The notes under the pieces: generated by a model
Told to the model about the DNA's origin: nothing
Seen by the model: the letters and a program-made list of their open reading frames with translations, nothing else
Database searches by the model: none
Assembly: GCA_951406725.2 (NCBI GenBank)
Contig: OX597818.1
Location: 21,266,001 to 21,330,000, forward strand
DNA from: Octopus vulgaris
Lineage: Eukaryota
DNA: 64,000 bases
Direction: 5' to 3'
In this document: piece after piece, positions 1-63,637 of the stretch
Position numbering within the stretch: the stretch's first letter is position 1
Layout: every line of letters starts with the position of its first letter
Program-made: the position numbers and the translations under genes

Positions 1-177
1 AATAGTCTAATAAAGGGGCATATAAGACTTCGACAGAAAAAAGAAGGCTTTCCCATCCATGTGTAAAGGTAACACACTTAGTCATGTTAACAAAAGGATG
101 TAGGTTCACGTCCCACACGGATGGGAAAGCCTTCTTTTTTTCTGTCGAGGGCTTATATGCCTTGTTATTAGACTATT
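1..177. repeat. Inverted repeat (fold-back element cut by the window start)
   Basis: 1-63 pairs with 115-177 with few mismatches. Confidence 0.85.
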
Positions 178-294
178 TTCCTTAGTCATTGCACTGTGAA
201 CGGCATAAGCTTTAAGCTTATATAAAAATACCATTATTATTATTTACAGGATTGTAAAATATGGCACCATATAATAAAACCATTCACACCGAAA

Positions 295-2417: not shown

Positions 2418-4047
2418 TCACTGGTCTTGCCGGGTCTTCTCACGCACAGCATACTTCCATAGGTCTCGGTCTCTGGTCATTTCCTTGGTGAGACCTAGAG
2501 TTCGAAGGTCGTGCTTCACCACCTCGACCCAGGTTTTCCTGGGTCTACCTCTTCCACAGGTCCCCTCAACTGCCAGGGTGTGGCACTTTTTCACACACCT
2601 ATCTTCATCCATTCTCACCACATGACCATACCAGCGCAATCGTCTCTCTTGCACACAACATCTGATTCCTCTTATGTCCAACTTTTCTCTCAAGGTACTT
2701 ACACTCTGTCGACTATGAACACTGACATTACACATCCAACGGAGCATACTAGCTTCATTTCTCGCGAGCTTACGCATGTCCTCAGCAGTCACGGCCCATG
2801 TTTCACTGCCATGTAGCATGGCTGTTCGTACACATGCATCATACAGTCTGCCTTTTACTCTGAGCGAGAGGCCTTTAGTCACCAACAGAGGTAAGAGCTC
2901 TCTAAACTTTGCCCAGGCTATTCTTACTCTAGCCGTTACACTTTCAAAACACCCACCCCCACTACTGACTTGGTCACCAAGATAACGGAAGCTATCAACT
3001 ACTTCTAGTTTTTCCCCCTGGAAAGTGACGGAAGTTGTTTTCTGCAGATTTTCAGAGGTTAATGCTCCCGAGCATCTGCCACATACAAAAACCATCTTCC
3101 TAGTTAGCCTTCCTATGACATTGCTGCACCTCTTATGTGTCCATAGCTTACACTTGGTGCATTTTATAGAGTTTCTACCTACACCTTTTCTACAGATCGA
3201 GCAGGGCCATCTACCTGAAGGCGTTTGTGATTTGTCTACCTTCCTACTTATTAGGACTTTGGTTTTAGCTAGGTTGACTCTAAGGCCCTTCGATTCTAAA
3301 CCATGCTTCCACACCTGAAACTTCTTCTCCAGTTCTGATAATGACTCAGCAATTAGAGCAAGGTCATCAGCATAGAGGAGCTCCCAGGGGCATCCTGTCT
3401 TGAATTCCTCCGTTATTGCCTGGAGGACTATGATAAATAGGAGGGGGCTGAGGACTGAGCCTTGGTGGACCCCTACCTCTACCCGGAATTCTTTACTGTA
3501 CTCATTTCCAACCCTCACCTTACTAGCAGCGTCCCTGTACATGGCTTGCACAGCTCTCACTAACCATTCTTCTATTCCTAGTTTCCTCATTGACCACCAT
3601 ATGAGGGATCGGGGGACCCTGTCGAAGGCTTTCTCCATGTCAACAAAAGCCAGGTACAGGGCCTTATCTTTTAGGTATTTCTCCTGCAGCTGCCTTACCA
3701 GGAATATAGCATCAGTGGTACTTTTCCCTGGCACGAAACCAAACTGCATCTCATCTAAACTAACTCTCTCTCTAATTAGTTGGCTTATGACCCTCTCTGT
3801 AACCTTCATCACCTGATCCAACAGCTTGATACCTCTGTAATTATTTGTATCTAGGGCATCACCTTTACCTTTGTAGCAGTTGACTATTATGCTGCTACAC
3901 CAGTCATTGGGTATGACTCCTTCATGTATCACCTGATTAACTATACAGGTGACTAGGCTATAGCCGACACTACCAGATATTTTGAGCATCTCTGCAGTGA
4001 TACCTGATGGGCCTGGGGCTTTCCCTGTCTTCATGCTTCTAATTGCC

Positions 4048-4049
<2 letters not shown>
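2418..4049 (-). CDS. Non-LTR reverse transcriptase (partial) with embedded PHD-like zinc finger
   Basis: KAPGPSGI, NYRGIKLL, QFGF, FVDMEKAFDRV, GVHQGSVLSPLLF, LYADD, FRYLG, LHGSETW, RRLRWYGHV, RGRPRKTW. The N-terminal IYIY run in the ORF track is microsatellite read-through. Confidence 0.93.
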
Positions 4050-4094
<45 letters not shown>

Positions 4095-4977
4095 CTTGAA
4101 CAGTACAAAACACATTGAGACCAGTGGTGTATAACAACATCAGATAGTCTGGCTGAAACCGTGATATATATATGCGTGAGTGTATATACATATACATACA
4201 TATATTTATTACATGTGCATGGAACTCCATTGGTTACAACAAGGGTTCCAGTTGATCCAATCAATGGAACAGCCTGTTCATAAAAATCAAAAAGCAAGTG
4301 GCTGAGCACACCACAAACATGCTTACCCTTAATGTAGTTCTAAAAGAGATTCAGCATGACACAGAATTTGACAAGGTTGGTCCTTTGAAATACAGGTACA
4401 ACTCATTTTTCCAGCTGAGTGGACTAGAGCAACATGAAATAAAAGTCTTGCTCAAGGACACAACACACTGCCATTAATCAGCTTACGACTGTGAGCTGAA
4501 TACGCTAACCACTTAAGCCAAGCACATTCACATGTATCTATATATATTTTTATACAAATATAAGTATATTAAGTATATGATTTAAGTTATAGAATGAAGT
4601 TCAACAAATTCAATCATATTTTTTATAAATGGAGGAGATTAGATGTTAATATGGTATAAATTATTTATACAAATATATATACATACATGCATACAAACAC
4701 ACACACACACTTATTTCCTCTCTTTTTTTGTGTGTGAAATACAGCGATTTTCTGTCTCTGGGTTGTAGACTTAATCTATATAACATCTTAACTGGTTTTT
4801 ACATGCTTTTAAGTGTTCCCCTGTGTTAAATCTATCCAGGTCAGATCTCCTCTGATAGGTGAGTTACTTCTCTCTCTCTTTCTCTCCCTTTTTCATTTTC
4901 TTTTGCCAACAGACTTAGAACATTGGTAGAAGGTATGATCATACCACTGTTTGTGTTAACATATTTAATGTACTGAG

Positions 4978-14090: not shown

Positions 14091-14539
14091 TGTGTGTGTG
14101 TGTGTATAAATATATATATATAATCAGGCATATCAGACTGGAGTCTGGTGCAGCCCCTCAGCTTACCAGCCCTGTCAAACCATCTAACCCATACCAGCAT
14201 GGACAGTGGATGTTAAATGTTGATGATGATCATGATATATATACACATACATATGTATTTATGTACCTATATATATCTATATTTGAATATAGGTAAGAAG
14301 TTTGCTTCTCAGCAACATGGTTCTATGTTCAATCCCACTGCATAGCACCTTGGATAAAATACCTTTGACTGTAGATCCAGGCCAACTAAAGCCTTGTTAG
14401 TAGCTGTGGTAGATGGAAACTGAAAGAAGCCCATTTTATATGTGTTGTTGTGTGTGTATGTGTGTTAATGTTTCCTGGCTTTGACATCGCCACCATAATG
14501 CAAATGGTGTCCTTCATTTTCAATATACTGCAAAAGCTC

Positions 14540-50439: not shown

Positions 50440-51590
50440 CTTCTTAAGCACCATATATCTCCGGTCATCCCAGTCCTTTTTCATCGTCATGAGGTTCAAA
50501 GTCCTGAGATCAGCCTTTACTACTTTGTCTCATAACTTCTTGAATCTCCCTCTTAAAAGATGAGCACGTCTTTATACAGACGTTCTCGTCAATATGCATT
50601 ACATGTCCATACCTGTGCAGTCTTCTTTCTTGCAGACTACATCTGATTCCTCTTATGCCCATTTGTAATTCATTGTTTATGCACACTTGTGTTGTACATC
50701 CAGTGAAACATGCTAGTTTCGCTTCTTCCTAATCTTCACAAGTCCTCTGCATTCAGGGCCCATGTTTCACTACCATGTAGCATTGCAGTTAGTAAGAAAG
50801 CGTCATACAAGCTACCTTTTCATTTTGAAAGAGAAAATCCTTTTGCTACTAACAGAAGTAAAATCTTTCTAAGCTTTCTCCAGCCTGTTCATGTAGCAAC
50901 TATACTTTTGGGACCTCCACCTTCATTGCTAATTAGGCCACTTAGGTAACAGAAAGTATCTACTGCAACAAAAAAAATCCATTTGTTAAAGACTCTTTTT
51001 CCATATGCTTATAGTATTTATTGCTCCTGAGCACCTGCCACATACAGAGTCTATTTTCACTTTTAATCTGTCTTTGATACCACTGCATCTTTTATGTACC
51101 CACAGTTTACATGGGCACACTGTTTAGAATTTCAACCTACACTTTTGTACATATTGAGCAAGACCATTCCTCTGATGGAAACAAAGATATGTCTGTTTTT
51201 CTACTTACGTCTTCACTAGATTGATTTTGAGATCCTTTGTTTCCATACAGAGAGTTTCTTCTCTAAATCTCCTACAGAATTCAGCATATATATCAGTTCC
51301 CACAAGCAACTTAAACTTGTCTATTATAACTAGGAAGACTATGATGAATAGGAAACTGAGAGCCAAGCCTTGATGAACTCTTATGTGCACATTAAACTCA
51401 TTGCTGTGCTCATTGCTAACTCTAACCTTGCTGGCAGCATCTCTGTATATGGCTTGTATTGTTCTCACAAACCATTCATCTACCGTCTAGCTTTGTCAGA
51501 GACCACCAGATCACAGAACAAGGCTCCCTGTTGACGGCATTCTTCAGGTCAACAAATGTTAAGTGTGGAAGCTTAGTTTTACTTAAATAC
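50440..51590 (-). mobile_element. Old RTE LINE relic
   Basis: IQAIYRDAASKVRVSNEHS...VHQG fragment; colinear with the RT ORF 3' half. Confidence 0.8.
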
Positions 51591-55797: not shown

Positions 55798-56638
55798 ATC
55801 ATCATCATTTACCATCTGCTTTCTATGCTGGCATGGGTTAGATAGTTTGACTGAAAACTGGTAAGCTGGAGACCTGCACCAAGTTCCCTATCTGATTTAG
55901 CAAGGTTTCTACAGCTTGATGCCTTTCCTAATGCCAACCACTCCATTAATTTAACATCAGCATCGGCCATAACTACAGTCTCACTTGGTTTGAGAGGTCT
56001 ACGCAAGCATGGTATATCGCCAAAGGTCTTGGTCACCTATCACTGCCTCCATGAGGCCCAACACTCAAAAAGTGCCTTTTACATGCCAGTCACATAGTAC
56101 TGGCATCAGCCACGACTAAGATTTCACTCGGCTCAACAGGTCTTCACAAGCACATAATATTGCCCAACAATTGAAGAGTGCTTTTAACAGGCTGGTTACG
56201 CGACACTGACATTGGCCACGACTACAATCTCATTTTTCAAGCATGGTATATTGCCAAAGGTCTCAGTCAGTTGTCATTGCTTCTGTAAGGCCCAACATTC
56301 GAAGATCATGTTTCACCACCTCGTCCCATGTCTTCCTGGGTCTACCTCTTCTTCAGGTACCCTCTACCGTTAGAGTGCAACACTTCACACAGCTATCCTC
56401 ATCCATACACATCACATAACCATACCAGCACAGTCATCTCTCTTGCACACCTCATCTGATGCTTCTTGTGTCCAACTTTTCTTTCAGGATGTTCCCACTG
56501 TTGTGCATGCACACTGACATTACTAGCTTCATTTCTTACAAGCCTATACATGTCCTCAGCAGTCACAGCTCACGTTTCACTGCTATGTAGTATGGCTGTT
56601 CGCACATGGGCATCATGCAGTCTGCCTTTCACTCTCAA
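55798..56638 (-). mobile_element. RTE 3' fragment (ORF end plus variant 3' UTR with ~120-140 bp internal repeats)
   Basis: Matches the ORF end at 2500-2860; repeated GGCATCGGCCA..ACTAC..TCTCAC blocks at about 55960, 56100 and 56210. Confidence 0.8.
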
Positions 56639-57071: not shown

Positions 57072-58390
57072 GTAAGTAACTCTTTACAGTCTCTTCTCTT
57101 TTTTTAAAATCTTTGTATTAACAGCCAAGCAGTCTGGTGAATCCATAATCTCTTTTTGTAGCACATGTAGAATTTGAATTCAGCAATGCAAAACTAATTT
57201 GCTGGCCACTTGTAAAGTGTTATTCTTTTACTTATTTCAGTCATTTGACTGTGGCCATGCTGGAGCATCACCTTAAAGGGATTTTATAATCGAAGAATTC
57301 GACCCCAGGACTTATTCTTTGTAAGCTTAGTACTTATTCTATCGGTCTCTTTTGCCAAACCACTAAATTACAGGGATGTAAGCGAAGGTAGGGGGACAAA
57401 TATAGACACAAAGACACACACATAAATATATACATACACGACAGGCTTCTTTAAGTTTCCATCTACCAAATCCACTTGCAAGGCTTTGTTCAGCCCAAGG
57501 TGCCATATAGTGGGATTTGAACCCAGAACCATGTGGTTGGAAAGCAAGCTTCTTACCATACAGCCACACCTGTTCTTGCTCATTCTTCTGATTTTTACAT
57601 CCATTTATTTTTTTCCTCTTCAGTTCTCATGTTTCTTCATCATCTGCTAGAAAAAAACAGGCATGTCAAGCTTTATTTTGTGGGCAGTGGGTATCACAAC
57701 CTTACAATAATCAGTTTCTTTATAGTGTGTAGCCCTAGAGAGGTCAGCAGTAGATATAAAGAACCTGCTCTACTTTTGCCCTCATTGCTTCCTGCAAAAG
57801 TTACGTCATACTCTGTTTGTTCTGTTTTCAGCAGGTATTTTGTGGATCGATGCATTTCTGTCACCAACCACTTTTAGACCATGGACTGGATATATTTTAT
57901 CATCTCATGGCACTAGAAACTGTCACTGGCCTAGTTTGAGTGACATTAAGTAGTGACCTTTGGAGAAAGGAAAAAAATGAAAAAAAGAATTATCTCTGTC
58001 ACCATTGTTAACTCTTGTATCAGTCTAAACTTGGTACCCTTTCCTCTTATTCAGGAAGTTCCAGTAATTCTTATCTCAGAGTTTCACCCTATCCTGTCAC
58101 CATTGTAAGCATACAATGAGCATTTAAAAATAATGCTAACTCATATCTCTGACTAACTCACTGATAAGAATTTTATTTTATTACTGCTGTCGATTAATGC
58201 AAGTGGGTGACACTTTTCTATTAGCTTTGTAGGATAGGATGTGAACCATAAAATATTTGGATCTTTGGTCAGTTTTCCAACACTGTTGATTCAGTTAACA
58301 GCAACTCGTATATCCCTACCACAATAGAAATTAGATGAAAACTGCGGATGAGGAAAATCTAAAACTCTGTGTGTAAGGGTAAACTTGTAT

Positions 58391-58894
58391 GATACAGTTC
58401 TGTACTTAAGAGATGAGGAATTATGTACATTATTTACATTTGATGGATATTTATCCTCATCTTGTTTGTTGTTAACACAACACTTTGGCTGATATACCCT
58501 CCAGCTTTCATCAGGTGTCTTGGGAAAATTTTGAACCTGGGTTCACATTCCTAAGGTATTTTTCGATATTATTATTATTCGGGTCACTGCTTGGAATCGA
58601 ACTTGGAATCTTGGGGTTAGTAGCCCACGCTCTTAACCACTACGCCATATGCTAGTGGGCATATGACGTTGTGGTTAAGAGCGCGGGCTACTAACCCCAA
58701 GATTCCAAGTTCGATTCCAAGCAGTGACCTGAATAATAATAATAATAACAATAACATCGAAAATTACCTTAGGAATGAGAACCCAGGTTCAAAATTTCCC
58801 CAAGATACCTGATGAAGGCTGGAGGGTATATCAGCCAAAACATTGTGTTAACAACAAAGATGAGGGCAAATATCCATCAAATGTAAATAATGTA
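58391..58894. mobile_element. Palindromic tRNA-head plus hammerhead element (putative non-autonomous Penelope-like)
   Basis: Arms 58426-58652 and 58659-58894; A/B boxes on both strands; CTGATGA-stem II-(G)AAA core in both arms; unpaired tail at 58391-58425. Confidence 0.8.
58804..58849 (+). ncRNA. Decayed minimal type-I hammerhead motif
   Basis: GATAC-CTGATGA-A-GGCTG-gagggtatat-CAGCC-AAAA-CATT-GTGTT. Four-copy consensus inferred as ...CAGCC-GAAA-CGTT-GTGTT; differences here are CpG transitions. Confidence 0.65.
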
Positions 58895-59392
58895 AACAAG
58901 CTTGTATAAGTTGTCAACGTCTAATAGTAGAGACAAGGTGAAAAAATTTTACAAAACTATTTCTGCTAGCCACAGAGATTTTCTGTCTGGGCAAATGACT
59001 GATTATATGATTGTGGGCCAGCTGTGTTAACTATAGAGAATATGCAAAAGTTGAATAGAATTGAAGCAAACATGCTTCATTAGATATATAATTCCAGTGT
59101 TTACAAACAGTTGAAGACATGTGATCAGAGAGAAAAAAAGAGCATTAGAGGACTTAACTATTGTGCTCAAGTTCAAAAGAGAAAACCACTATTACAAACA
59201 TGTGATGCATATGAAATACTAGGTTGGACACCAAACAGACAAACTAAGTAAATAAATGGTGAAGTTACCTATAGCTATGAGTTTGTTATGTTAAAGTAGA
59301 CACACTTGGGAAGTGATGGCCTTTTGCCTATAGTTATAAAACACTCATAATTATGCTCTACAACTAGGTGGTTCAGGACAGAGGATAGAAAA

Positions 59393-59617
59393 TAGTTCTA
59401 TATTTAAGGGATGAGGAATTATGTATATTATTTACATTTGACAGATATTTGTCCTCATCTTGTTTGTTGTTAACACATTTCAGCTGATATACCTTCCAGC
59501 CTTCATCAGGTGTCTTGGAGAAATTTTGAAACTGATGAAGGCTGGAGGGTATATCAGCTGAAACGTGTTAACAACAAACAAGATGAGGACAAATATCCAT
59601 CAAATGTAAATAATGTA
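59393..59617. mobile_element. Second copy of the same family lacking the tRNA heads, with 13-bp TSD
   Basis: TSD AGAGGATAGAAAA at 59380-59392 and 59618-59630; same tail and same right terminus (AATGTAAATAATGTA). Confidence 0.85.
59532..59572 (+). ncRNA. Hammerhead core in copy 2
   Basis: CTGATGA-A-GGCTG-gagggtatat-CAGCT-GAAAC-GTGTT; core intact but stem I 5' strand and cleavage triplet altered. Confidence 0.6.
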
Positions 59618-59813
59618 AGAGGATAGAAAAGCCCATGTTTTCAAATTTGATATTACCATTTTGGAATTTGTTTACATACACTCACACTCAGCCCTAATGT
59701 ATTTTTCATCTCGTGTAGGGGAACATTTCTTAAGAAATGGACCAGATTTAATTCTCTTGTCTATGTGATTCACCTTCTTTTACCTTTGACTCAACATTCC
59801 TTTGCTAAATTAA

Positions 59814-61676: not shown

Positions 61677-63637
61677 ATCATCATCATCATCATTTAATGT
61701 CCACTTTCCATGCTGGCATGGGTTGGATGGTTTGACTGAGGACTGGCATGCTGGAAAGCTGCATCAGGCTCCAATCTGATTTGGCATGGTTTCTACAGCT
61801 GGATGCTCTTCCTAACACCAACCACTCTGAGAGTGTAGTGGGTACTTTTTACATGCCACCGGCACAGGAACCAATCAGTACTGGCATTGGTCACGCTCAA
61901 ATGGTGATTTTTATGTGCTACCAGCAAGCAGTACTGGCATCAGCAATGCTTGAATGGTGCTTTTTACATGCCACCTGCACAGGTGCCAGTCAGGTGGCAC
62001 TGGCATTGGCCATGGCTACAATTTCCCTCGGTTCAACAGGCCTTCACAGGCACAACATATTGCCAAACAATTGAAAGGTGCTTTTAAATGGCCAGTTATG
62101 CAACCCCGGCATCGGCCATAACTACGAGGTCACTTGGCTTGCCAGGTCTTCTCAAGCACAGCATATCTCCAAAAGTCTCGGTTGCTTGTCATTCCCTCTA
62201 TGAGGCCTCATCCCATGTTTTCCTGGGTCTACCTCTTCCACAGGTTCCCTCCACTGTTAGGGTATGACACTTCACACAGCTGTCCTCACCCATACACAAC
62301 ACATGACCATACCAGCACAGTCGTCTCCCCTGCACACCACATCTGATGCTTATCAACAACTTTTCTTTCAGTGTGCTTACACTCGGTCATGTATGCACAC
62401 TGACATTACACATCCAGCAGAGTATACTAGCTTCATTTCTTTCAAGACTATGCATATCCTCAGCAGTCACAGCCCATGTTTCACTCCCGTATAGCATGGC
62501 AGTTCGCACACCTTTCACTCTCAGTGAGAGGCCCTTTGTTACCAACAAAGGTAGCAGCTCTCTGAACTTTGCCCTGGCTATTCTTATTCTAGCAGCTACA
62601 CTTACAGAGCATCCACTCCCTGCTACTGACTTGGTCACTTAGGTAACGGAAGCTATCAATTACTTCTAGTTTTTCCTCTTGGCATGTGATGGAATCTGTT
62701 TTCTGTACATCTTCGGTGTTTATTGCATCTGTGCATCTGCCACACACAAAACCTATCTTCCCAGATATTCCTTTGATATTGCTGCACCTCTTATGTGTTC
62801 ATAGCTTACACCAGGTACATCTTATAGAGTTTCTATCTATGCTTTTTCTTCAAATTGGGCCATCTACCTGAAGGATTTGTGATTTGTCCGCCTCCCTACT
62901 TACTAAGACTTTGGTTTTTGCTAGGTTAACTCTAAGGCCCTTCGATTCTAGACCTTACTTCCACATTTGAAGCTTTTTCTCTAGGTCTGGTAGTGATTCA
63001 GCTAGTAGAGCAAGATCATCAGCATAGAAAAGCTCCCAGGGGTAACCTCTCTTGAATTCCTCTGTTATTGCCTGGAGGATTATGATGAACAAGAAGGAGC
63101 TGAGGACTGATCCCTGGTGAACCCCTAGTTCTACCCAAAATTCTTTCCTATACTCGTTGCCAACCCTCACCTTACTGACAGCATCCCTGCACATGGCTTG
63201 TACAGCTCTCACCAACCTATCTCTAGTTTCCACATTGACCACCAAATAAGGGATCGCGGGACCCTGTCAAAGGCTTTCTCCATGTCAATGGAAGCCAAGT
63301 ACAGAGGTTTATCTTTAGCCAAGAATTTCTCCTGCAGCTGTCTTACCAGAAATATAGCATCAGTGGTGCTTTTCCCTGGTACAAACCCAAACTACATCTC
63401 ATCTAAACTAACTCTCTCGTTTCATCACCTGATCTAACAATTTAATATCTCTGTAATTATTTCTATCTAATATGTCACCTTTACCTTTGTAGCAGTTGAC
63501 TATGGTGCTGCTACACCACTCATTGGGTATGGCTCCTTCGTGTATCACCTGATTAACTATATGGGTGACTAGACTATAGCCTACAATGCCATATATTTTA
63601 AGCATCTCAGCAGTGATTCCTGATGGGCTGGGAGCAT
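61677..63637 (-). mobile_element. Degenerate 5'-truncated RTE LINE (same family as 1652-4050)
   Basis: Colinear with the first copy; fragments GVHQGSVLSSFLF, FYADD and LYGSETW broken by frameshifts; same 3' tail. Confidence 0.9.

Follow-up and report, generated by a model that had tools for sequence, protein, structure and literature searches.

A tRNA-derived module in the terminal repeat of a Penelope-type retroelement of Octopus vulgaris: a probable Pol III promoter

A palindrome in the 64,000-nucleotide stretch of Octopus vulgaris DNA analysed here (the window) is the insertion by-product of a Penelope-type element and consists of two dead copies of that element's terminal repeat, or pLTR. 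The repeat opens with a tRNA-like head, and comparison of its copies across the genome suggests that this head is probably a tRNA-derived Pol III promoter in use within a Penelope pLTR, giving rise to short, SINE-like copies. More tentatively, we consider it possible that an autonomous protein-coding element captured the tRNA-derived promoter, is read end to end by Pol III, has been purged of TTTT across its 2.5-kb ORF, and carries a terminal repeat that doubles as a SINE-like element. Because the repeat starts with a tRNA-type promoter and the gene lacks Pol III stop signals, the short copies are likely Pol III products and the whole gene may be Pol III-read.

The insertion spans 58393-58894, with its start at 58393. 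An earlier note on this DNA had described it as a near-perfect palindrome with an extra tail of about 35 bp on one arm. Inverted symmetry is evident, but near-perfection is not: the arms are 88-95% complementary where they pair without gaps, and over 484 columns the inverted self-match comes to 86.8%. The tail is indeed one-sided, measures 33 nt and lies on the left arm (58425-58393); the tRNA-like heads, A and B boxes, (AAT)n, hammerhead-like motifs and one-sided tail are all present at the positions that had been assigned to them. The features of the locus are as follows.

58381..58392, no strand: left copy of a probable, decayed 12-bp target site duplication (TSD), matching 58898-58909 at 10/12 positions by eye
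58393..58652, minus strand: tail-bearing arm, a near-complete pLTR unit covering family positions 3-268, with 247/260 aligned bases as in the family consensus
58393..58425, minus strand: 33-nt Penelope-type tail, on this arm only, which is coding sequence of the partner ORF (frame open across the tail in a single genomic copy, L118)
58474..58519, minus strand: minimal type I hammerhead, inactivated by changes in GAAA, G10.1 and stem III (sequence comparison with the consensus)
58546..58548, minus strand: first ATG of the partner element's 835-aa ORF, unit position 113 (from the consensus ORF)
58567..58579, minus strand: (AAT)n spacer (read in the sequence)
58593..58602, minus strand: B box (read in the sequence)
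58637..58647, minus strand: A box, identical to the family consensus (consensus comparison)
58653..58656, no strand: head-to-head junction, where both tRNA-like heads start (similar junctions in other copies, and loose ends of RNA reads)
58657..58894, plus strand: inverted tail-less arm, family positions 1 to about 235, with 226/237 aligned bases as in the consensus
58664..58674, plus strand: decayed A box (consensus comparison)
58709..58718, plus strand: B box (read in the sequence)
58804..58849, plus strand: minimal type I hammerhead, inactivated by two CpG-type changes, in GAAA and stem III (consensus comparison)
58898..58909, no strand: right copy of the probable decayed TSD, pairing with 58381-58392
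59394..59617, no strand: second, independent inverted insertion of the same family, 5′-truncated and without tRNA head, covering positions 122-265 (minus strand) and 147-235 (plus strand), within a perfect 13-bp TSD at 59380-59392 and 59618-59630

The second insertion, which is absent from the earlier note, has lost 3 nt in stem III of both arms.

A search of the whole genome (2.80 Gb, 227 contigs) with one arm, of the kind the earlier note had proposed, returned 5266 first-look candidates; 40 of these were scored, and 30 loci were fetched. All 30 fetched loci align as a unit of about 268 bp with a sharp 3′ end, in the order tRNA-like head, (AAT)n, minimal hammerhead and tail, and half of them (15/30) carry an adjacent inverted partial copy. 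The family is not a product of chance, since these 5266 candidates are joined by 3054 genomic occurrences of the exact tail 31-mer, against 0 for a reversed control. Copies differ at 4-8% of non-CpG positions, and from this divergence and the k-mer counts our own estimate suggests a copy number on the order of 10^4.

The ends of the copies were surveyed in 90 of the 3054 exact tail matches, all on contig C1 and taken in position order. An inverted upstream partner accompanies 56 of the 90, and 40 of these 56 partners end at 231-242 and are thus tail-less. Target site duplications of 8-17 bp, one microsatellite case apart, flank 31 of 84 copies as compared with 1.75 in shuffled pairs; the count required a duplication score of at least 8 and omitted two copies that run into the ORF and four with no boundary inside the locus. 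An inverted 5′ partner, a one-sided tail of 30-40 nt and a short TSD are characteristic of Penelope and Poseidon elements. The same arrangement of inverted partner and short duplication has been reported for Adineta Pen2a (PMC3846280) and is general to Penelope-like elements, or PLEs (PMC8557442); here and below, comparisons with published elements draw on portions of the papers cited. The palindrome had been put forward as the element itself; it is instead the usual inverted Penelope insertion, and 34 of the 90 sampled copies have no inverted partner. Asymmetric ends, variable inversion points and TSDs of 8-17 bp rule out a MITE or DNA transposon. Two further observations concern individual ends and loci. 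At 71-100, in or close to the (AAT)n tract (family positions 76-95), there are 15 of the 90 5′ ends, for which expansion of the tract, priming at ATT repeats in the genome and breaks in the alignment are possible causes. Two copies lying 3.4 kb apart on contig C20 (L009 and L020) have about 600 bp of flank in common at 91%, a local duplication after insertion.

The autonomous partner is present in the same genome. Upstream of the head, 2 of the 30 arm-fetched loci (L013 and L021) contain the end of an ORF for an RT thumb and GIY-YIG, and in 24 of 30 loci fetched with that ORF piece the head sequence lies directly behind the ORF. A direct-orientation 5′ pLTR precedes the ORF in 5 of 30 loci selected by the 5′ part of the ORF, and in L149 this 5′ pLTR is itself preceded by an upstream ORF end. 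Together with L118, these loci display the pLTR as a partial tandem overlapping the ORF start, as in Penelope and Poseidon elements. The consensus element unit is 2649 nt long (∼2.65 kb), and its ORF encodes 835 aa with RT and GIY-YIG, starting at unit position 113 and stopping 29 nt before the next head, so that the hammerhead and tail encode its first 52 codons. The unit is the pLTR of this element, because it directly follows the RT and GIY-YIG ORF, precedes the ORF in direct copies, and encodes the ORF start. The dependence on a Penelope element that the earlier note had proposed is borne out by a partner carrying the same terminus. Its view of a separate, non-coding element is not: the unit is the autonomous element's own pLTR, holds the first 52 codons, and has subfamily variants in common with ORF-attached copies.

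Alignments place the element, as far as sequence can tell, among the Penelope/Poseidon elements. One real copy, L118, keeps an uninterrupted frame from the hammerhead into the ORF, and this frame can be aligned with the Anolis protein P0016 (E 3e-23). Homologues of the ORF are RT/GIY-YIG proteins of 27-68% identity, the named ones coming from coral, beetles, lizard, brine shrimp and tapeworm, and a relative of 53% identity (P0003) has kept the hammerhead-coding N-terminus. The single ORF, with RT, C-terminal GIY-YIG, a DKG motif and no Zn-finger linker, aligns end to end with P0016 and others. Pfam recognizes RVT_1 in a real copy of the ORF and returned no GIY-YIG match for its C-terminal piece, where the domain assignment rests on alignment. 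No intact ORF was seen among the copies, the longest stop-free match being 569 aa, and a metagenome scan for relatives with DNA context gave 73 pattern matches and 0 confirmed cases.

Other, younger Penelope-like families with 781-aa frames, returned by a genome search with Pfam GIY-YIG, were tried as partner and rejected, as their 40 loci lack the shared tail except for an unrelated nearby insertion in L059. One of them (L037, L042, L039 and L049), which we take to be Neptune-like, is young and has many 781-aa open frames with a Cys-rich linker; its 3′ end carries a hammerhead-like variant, in which U and A replace the C3-G8 pair, followed by (AT)n. Among L051-L066 there are at least three further GIY-YIG families, whose members are 91-99% alike within a family, and several of their copies are truncated at (AT)n or (GT)n tracts.

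What sets the octopus pLTR apart is its head. Aligned to genomic tRNA-Arg(UCU), the head scores 16, while 300 shuffles reach at most 3.5, and the four best of 35 genomic tRNA sequences, an incomplete set of 10 anticodon classes, are all Arg. The A and B boxes are intact in the family and keep tRNA spacing, in agreement with the tRNA-derived head recognized in the earlier note. Rfam found no tRNA in the window, where it returned only miRNA-type hairpin matches below threshold, and nothing on the L180 copy; ARAGORN found no tRNA gene in the window and matched the consensus head only after its threshold was lowered to 70.

A tRNA-derived A/B-box head at the 5′ boundary is a SINE feature, and 5′ ends do pile up at this head. 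The 5′ ends of the 90 sampled copies lie inside the unit in 51 cases and at −30 to +20 in 31, while 8 copies run into the ORF. Among the 39 copies that reach the head, 31 thus stop at −30 to +20, where the background truncation rate predicts 18% (P 1e-16). Genome-wide, a CpG-free exact 20-mer from the head occurs 5148 times, compared with 919 for one in the leader 57 nt upstream. Junctions retain 0 to about 8 nt of the leader or are exact fold-back palindromes, a structure that fits an RNA start just before the head. As a separate observation, the last 14 nt of the leader (in L021 and L149, for example) repeat the first 10 nt of the head imperfectly and in inverted orientation, which may be left over from the capture of the tRNA module.

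The strongest competitor of Pol III initiation at the head, though in our judgment an unlikely one, is that the short copies are ordinary 5′-truncated Penelope copies, transcribed by Pol II with a captured SINE head in the 3′ UTR, and that a hairpin at the junction halts reverse transcription or primes fold-back. A 10-bp hairpin of −9.6 kcal/mol as RNA does span the leader/head junction, many junctions are exact palindromes at this hairpin, and the fold-back junctions centre on it. It could stop RT or prime fold-back without any promoter, which we count against the Pol III reading. A second palindrome, at about unit positions 116-127, also collects inverted ends, with 9 of the 56 inverted partners ending at 112-129, and the Penelope of D. 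virilis and Chlamys-3 have internal pLTR promoters that overlap introns (PMC8557442). However, stem II of the hammerhead is similarly stable (−8.1 kcal/mol) and yet shows no pile-up, with 7 of 90 5′ ends at 141-180. Simple truncation is further opposed by the A and B boxes, which remain intact although the remainder of the tRNA is too decayed to be detected, and by the depletion of TTTT along the whole ORF.

TTTT serves as the terminator of Pol III. The sense strand of the 2649-nt consensus contains 0 runs of TTTT and 32 runs of four A. A codon shuffle predicts 2.9 TTTT runs (P 0.03), a four-fold-site base model 5.3 (P 0.003) and a first-order Markov model 2.6 (P 0.08), with GGGG equally absent (P 0.06); the strength of the depletion varies with the null model, and this too is counted against Pol III. 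Real, decayed copies contain 19 runs of T≥4 in 50.9 kb (0.37 per kb), all sporadic, as opposed to 3.0 per kb (22 in 7245 nt) in six other retroelement ORFs (P 0.001). These controls are six frames of similar T content from this genome, belonging to RTE and other Penelope-like lineages and including no head-less Poseidon; two additional frames were excluded, being either of the same family or very short. The depletion is suggestive, at the level of sequence, of Pol III transcription across the ORF. One control is a 573-aa open frame in the window itself (2418-4139, minus strand), presumably an RTE-type LINE, with an RVT_1 and a weak PHD match and with related copies near 62130-63632, 50601-51556 and 56234-56635.

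Raw RNA-seq from organism B, which derives from unstranded cDNA, neither supports nor refutes Pol III use. Both strands are equally represented, 88% of reads run into unlike sequence, and copies inside host transcripts dominate, as does one embedded copy over the ORF; among the places listed, none has many molecule starts or ends.

Less probable still is that the short unit is an independent SINE lineage, along the lines of the earlier note, in which a tRNA head was fused to a Penelope end and propagated from its own master genes, to be recaptured later by the autonomous element. Head-start copies outnumber ORF-attached ones by about 5.6 to 1, and the layout of head, body and tail fits the definition of a SINE (PMC3531059). 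The variant 155A, found in 13 of 84 head-start copies as against 2 of 56 ORF-attached ones, hints at some independent short lineage. Against a separate lineage as the general explanation, both classes contain the linked variants 64, 151 and 220 (151A in 8/56 ORF-attached and 18/84 head-start copies, 220G in 8/51 and 15/84), and the short copies therefore have masters or history in common with the autonomous element. Among 30 loci fetched with a distant homologue, none was a Poseidon-type partner lacking the tRNA head, all 30 being the tRNA-headed family itself, and some head-start copies retain up to about 8 nt of the element's own leader. A SINE would also be separate from its partner and have only its 3′ part in common with it, whereas here the whole unit, head included, is part of the partner; and in place of a LINE partner and a simple-repeat 3′ tail we find a PLE and a fixed, unique 3′ end.

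The hammerhead of the family consensus has the CUGANGA and GAAA core, stems I and II, a palindromic stem III and an NUH site. The minimal type I ribozyme that the earlier note had read at this locus thus exists in the family, but neither arm of the palindrome retains the G of GAAA or a palindromic stem III, and the Rfam search that it had recommended found no hammerhead in the window. Of 284 aligned pieces, with both arms of a locus counted, 134 retain an intact core; copies are too alike to display stem covariation, and the frequent 155A breaks the 10.1-11.1 pair without compensation. Unit position 151, which carries a subfamily change, is the one free base of the core (N7).

Self-cleavage does not appear to define the end of the element. 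The fixed 3′ end lies about 85 nt beyond the predicted cut at unit position 182/183 and is thus not a self-cleaved one. The 5′ ends of copies do not pile up at the cut (5 of 90 at 181-220), nor do RNA ends among the places listed, and the self-cleaving end once proposed is not upheld. Copies end near 266-268, in the tail-selected sample and also in the 30 arm-fetched loci. Work on Anolis Poseidon (PMC11167929) places the onset of reverse transcription at two internal sites, one at each boundary of the tail; insertion persists when the hammerhead is mutated, and the cut site is not an endpoint of any RNA-seq read. The octopus 3′ end lies at codon 52, opposite residue 39 of P0016 in the alignment, and it would fall inside the 111-118 nt RT start region of Anolis Poseidon if P0016 is the protein of that study (PMC11167929). 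These data also largely refute a retrozyme or Sm-alpha-like element, cut out by its hammerhead and copied as a circle or tandem: although a tRNA-type promoter joined to a hammerhead is the Sm-alpha layout (PMC6765202, PMC2770079), copy ends lie off the cut site, tandem direct copies were flagged in just 2 of the 90, and the unit belongs to a coding element, which makes this reading highly improbable.

The mechanism that we propose, with Pol III initiating at the head, builds on the identity of the unit as the pLTR of an element encoding an 835-aa RT and GIY-YIG protein. Pol III would start a few nucleotides upstream of the head and, since neither pLTR nor ORF contains TTTT, could produce full-length RNA from the 5′ pLTR. 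By analogy with the biochemistry of Anolis Poseidon, the protein would nick AT-rich DNA and prime reverse transcription at two internal sites about 33 nt apart, which would account for the fixed 3′ end and one-sided tail and would not require ribozyme cleavage. The cDNA may run off at the 5′ end of the RNA or stop earlier, and then fold back or switch template; what would remain is a tail-less partner in inverted orientation, enclosed by a short target duplication. For head-to-head palindromes a model with an antisense template has also been raised (PMC3846280), a point that weighs against our reading. In the copy at 58393-58894, later CpG decay broke both hammerheads. Translation of an uncapped Pol III RNA is a further weak point of the Pol III reading.

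Much of this architecture is familiar. With Penelope/Poseidon-clade elements such as Poseidon of Anolis (PMC11167929) and Adineta Pen2a (PMC3846280) the octopus element has in common a single ORF of about 835 aa with RT and C-terminal GIY-YIG, a hammerhead in the pLTR, a pLTR overlapping the ORF start, a one-sided tail of 30-40 nt, an inverted 5′ partner, a TSD of about 8-13 bp, and AT-rich targets. Unlike the Poseidon-clade elements described, its pLTR starts with a tRNA-derived A/B-box module at which 5′ ends pile up, and its sense strand lacks TTTT. Penelope promoters have been described as TATA/Inr-like or intron-overlapping (PMC11167929, PMC3846280, PMC8557442), and the words tRNA and SINE do not occur in the paper on Adineta Pen2a (PMC3846280). 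The ribozyme resembles the minimal hammerheads of metazoan PLEs (PMC4209133) in its short stem I, unpaired base between 9 and 10.1, palindromic 15.2-16.2 and missing loop 3; it differs in having a stem II of 5 bp rather than 7-8, and both copies at 58393-58894 are mutated in the core.

Sm-alpha and Sj-alpha of Schistosoma (PMC2770079, PMC6765202) are likewise short repeats of high copy number in which a hammerhead comes after a tRNA-related promoter of the Pol III type. Those repeats are non-coding, often tandem and released by their ribozyme, whereas the octopus unit is a coding element's pLTR whose minimal PLE ribozyme does not set its ends. In the TRIMp3 elements Cassandra, Helenus and Ajax (PMC10886601), a Pol III promoter derived from a small RNA likewise lies within a retroelement terminal repeat, but these are non-autonomous LTR elements of 311-1263 bp whose autonomous partners, it is argued there, must use Pol II; the octopus module sits in an autonomous element's own repeat. 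Animal non-LTR retrozymes (bioRxiv 10.64898/2026.07.22.740005) are similar in being hammerhead-bearing, non-coding derivatives of PLE pLTRs and, unlike the octopus unit, are defined as tandem repeats; the words tRNA, Pol III, octopus and cephalopod are absent from that preprint. No description of a tRNA-headed pLTR in an autonomous PLE was found in searches of the openly accessible literature, and the covered text of a 2026 paper on octopus repeats (PMC13282606) does not mention a tRNA-headed PLE. Already known, then, are the Penelope architecture with a minimal hammerhead (PMC4209133), the tRNA promoter with a hammerhead (Sm-alpha), and Pol III promoters in the repeats of non-autonomous TRIMp3 elements; apparently new is a tRNA-type promoter in the pLTR of an autonomous PLE, combined with the 5′ pile-up and the absence of TTTT.

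By definition, SINEs are transcribed by Pol III and copied by a separate LINE, and Pol II is taken to be indispensable to autonomous elements (PMC3531059, PMC10886601). If our interpretation is correct, a Penelope element whose own repeat carries a tRNA-type promoter would break both rules and illustrate one way in which a SINE can arise from its partner. If Pol III also reads the element end to end, it would amount to a LINE-SINE pair in one molecule, and a Penelope counterpart of the use of Pol I by R2. The finding bears on two questions about Penelope elements, namely where transcription starts and what purpose the hammerhead has; if the transcript has no cap, the 5′ end of the mRNA could be shaped by the ribozyme, as in R2. 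The mapping of the 3′ end to the Anolis RT start region suggests that this site is conserved across distant animals. A repeat of about 10^4 copies with this layout is also easily misfiled as a SINE, a MITE or miRNA hairpins.

The short unit may already have a name. Ohshima and Okada reportedly described in 1994 three octopus SINEs, OK, OR1 and OR2, that are tRNA-derived and of high copy number, two of them said to derive from tRNA-Arg and one to be about as long as this unit; OR1 or OR2 were classed as CORE-SINEs in two later papers. The unit may therefore be among them. The window also contains, at 1650-2370, 357-695 and 14292-14473 and in further copies, at least three other dispersed repeat families, one with tandem units of about 61 bp, which are candidates for the named octopus SINEs.
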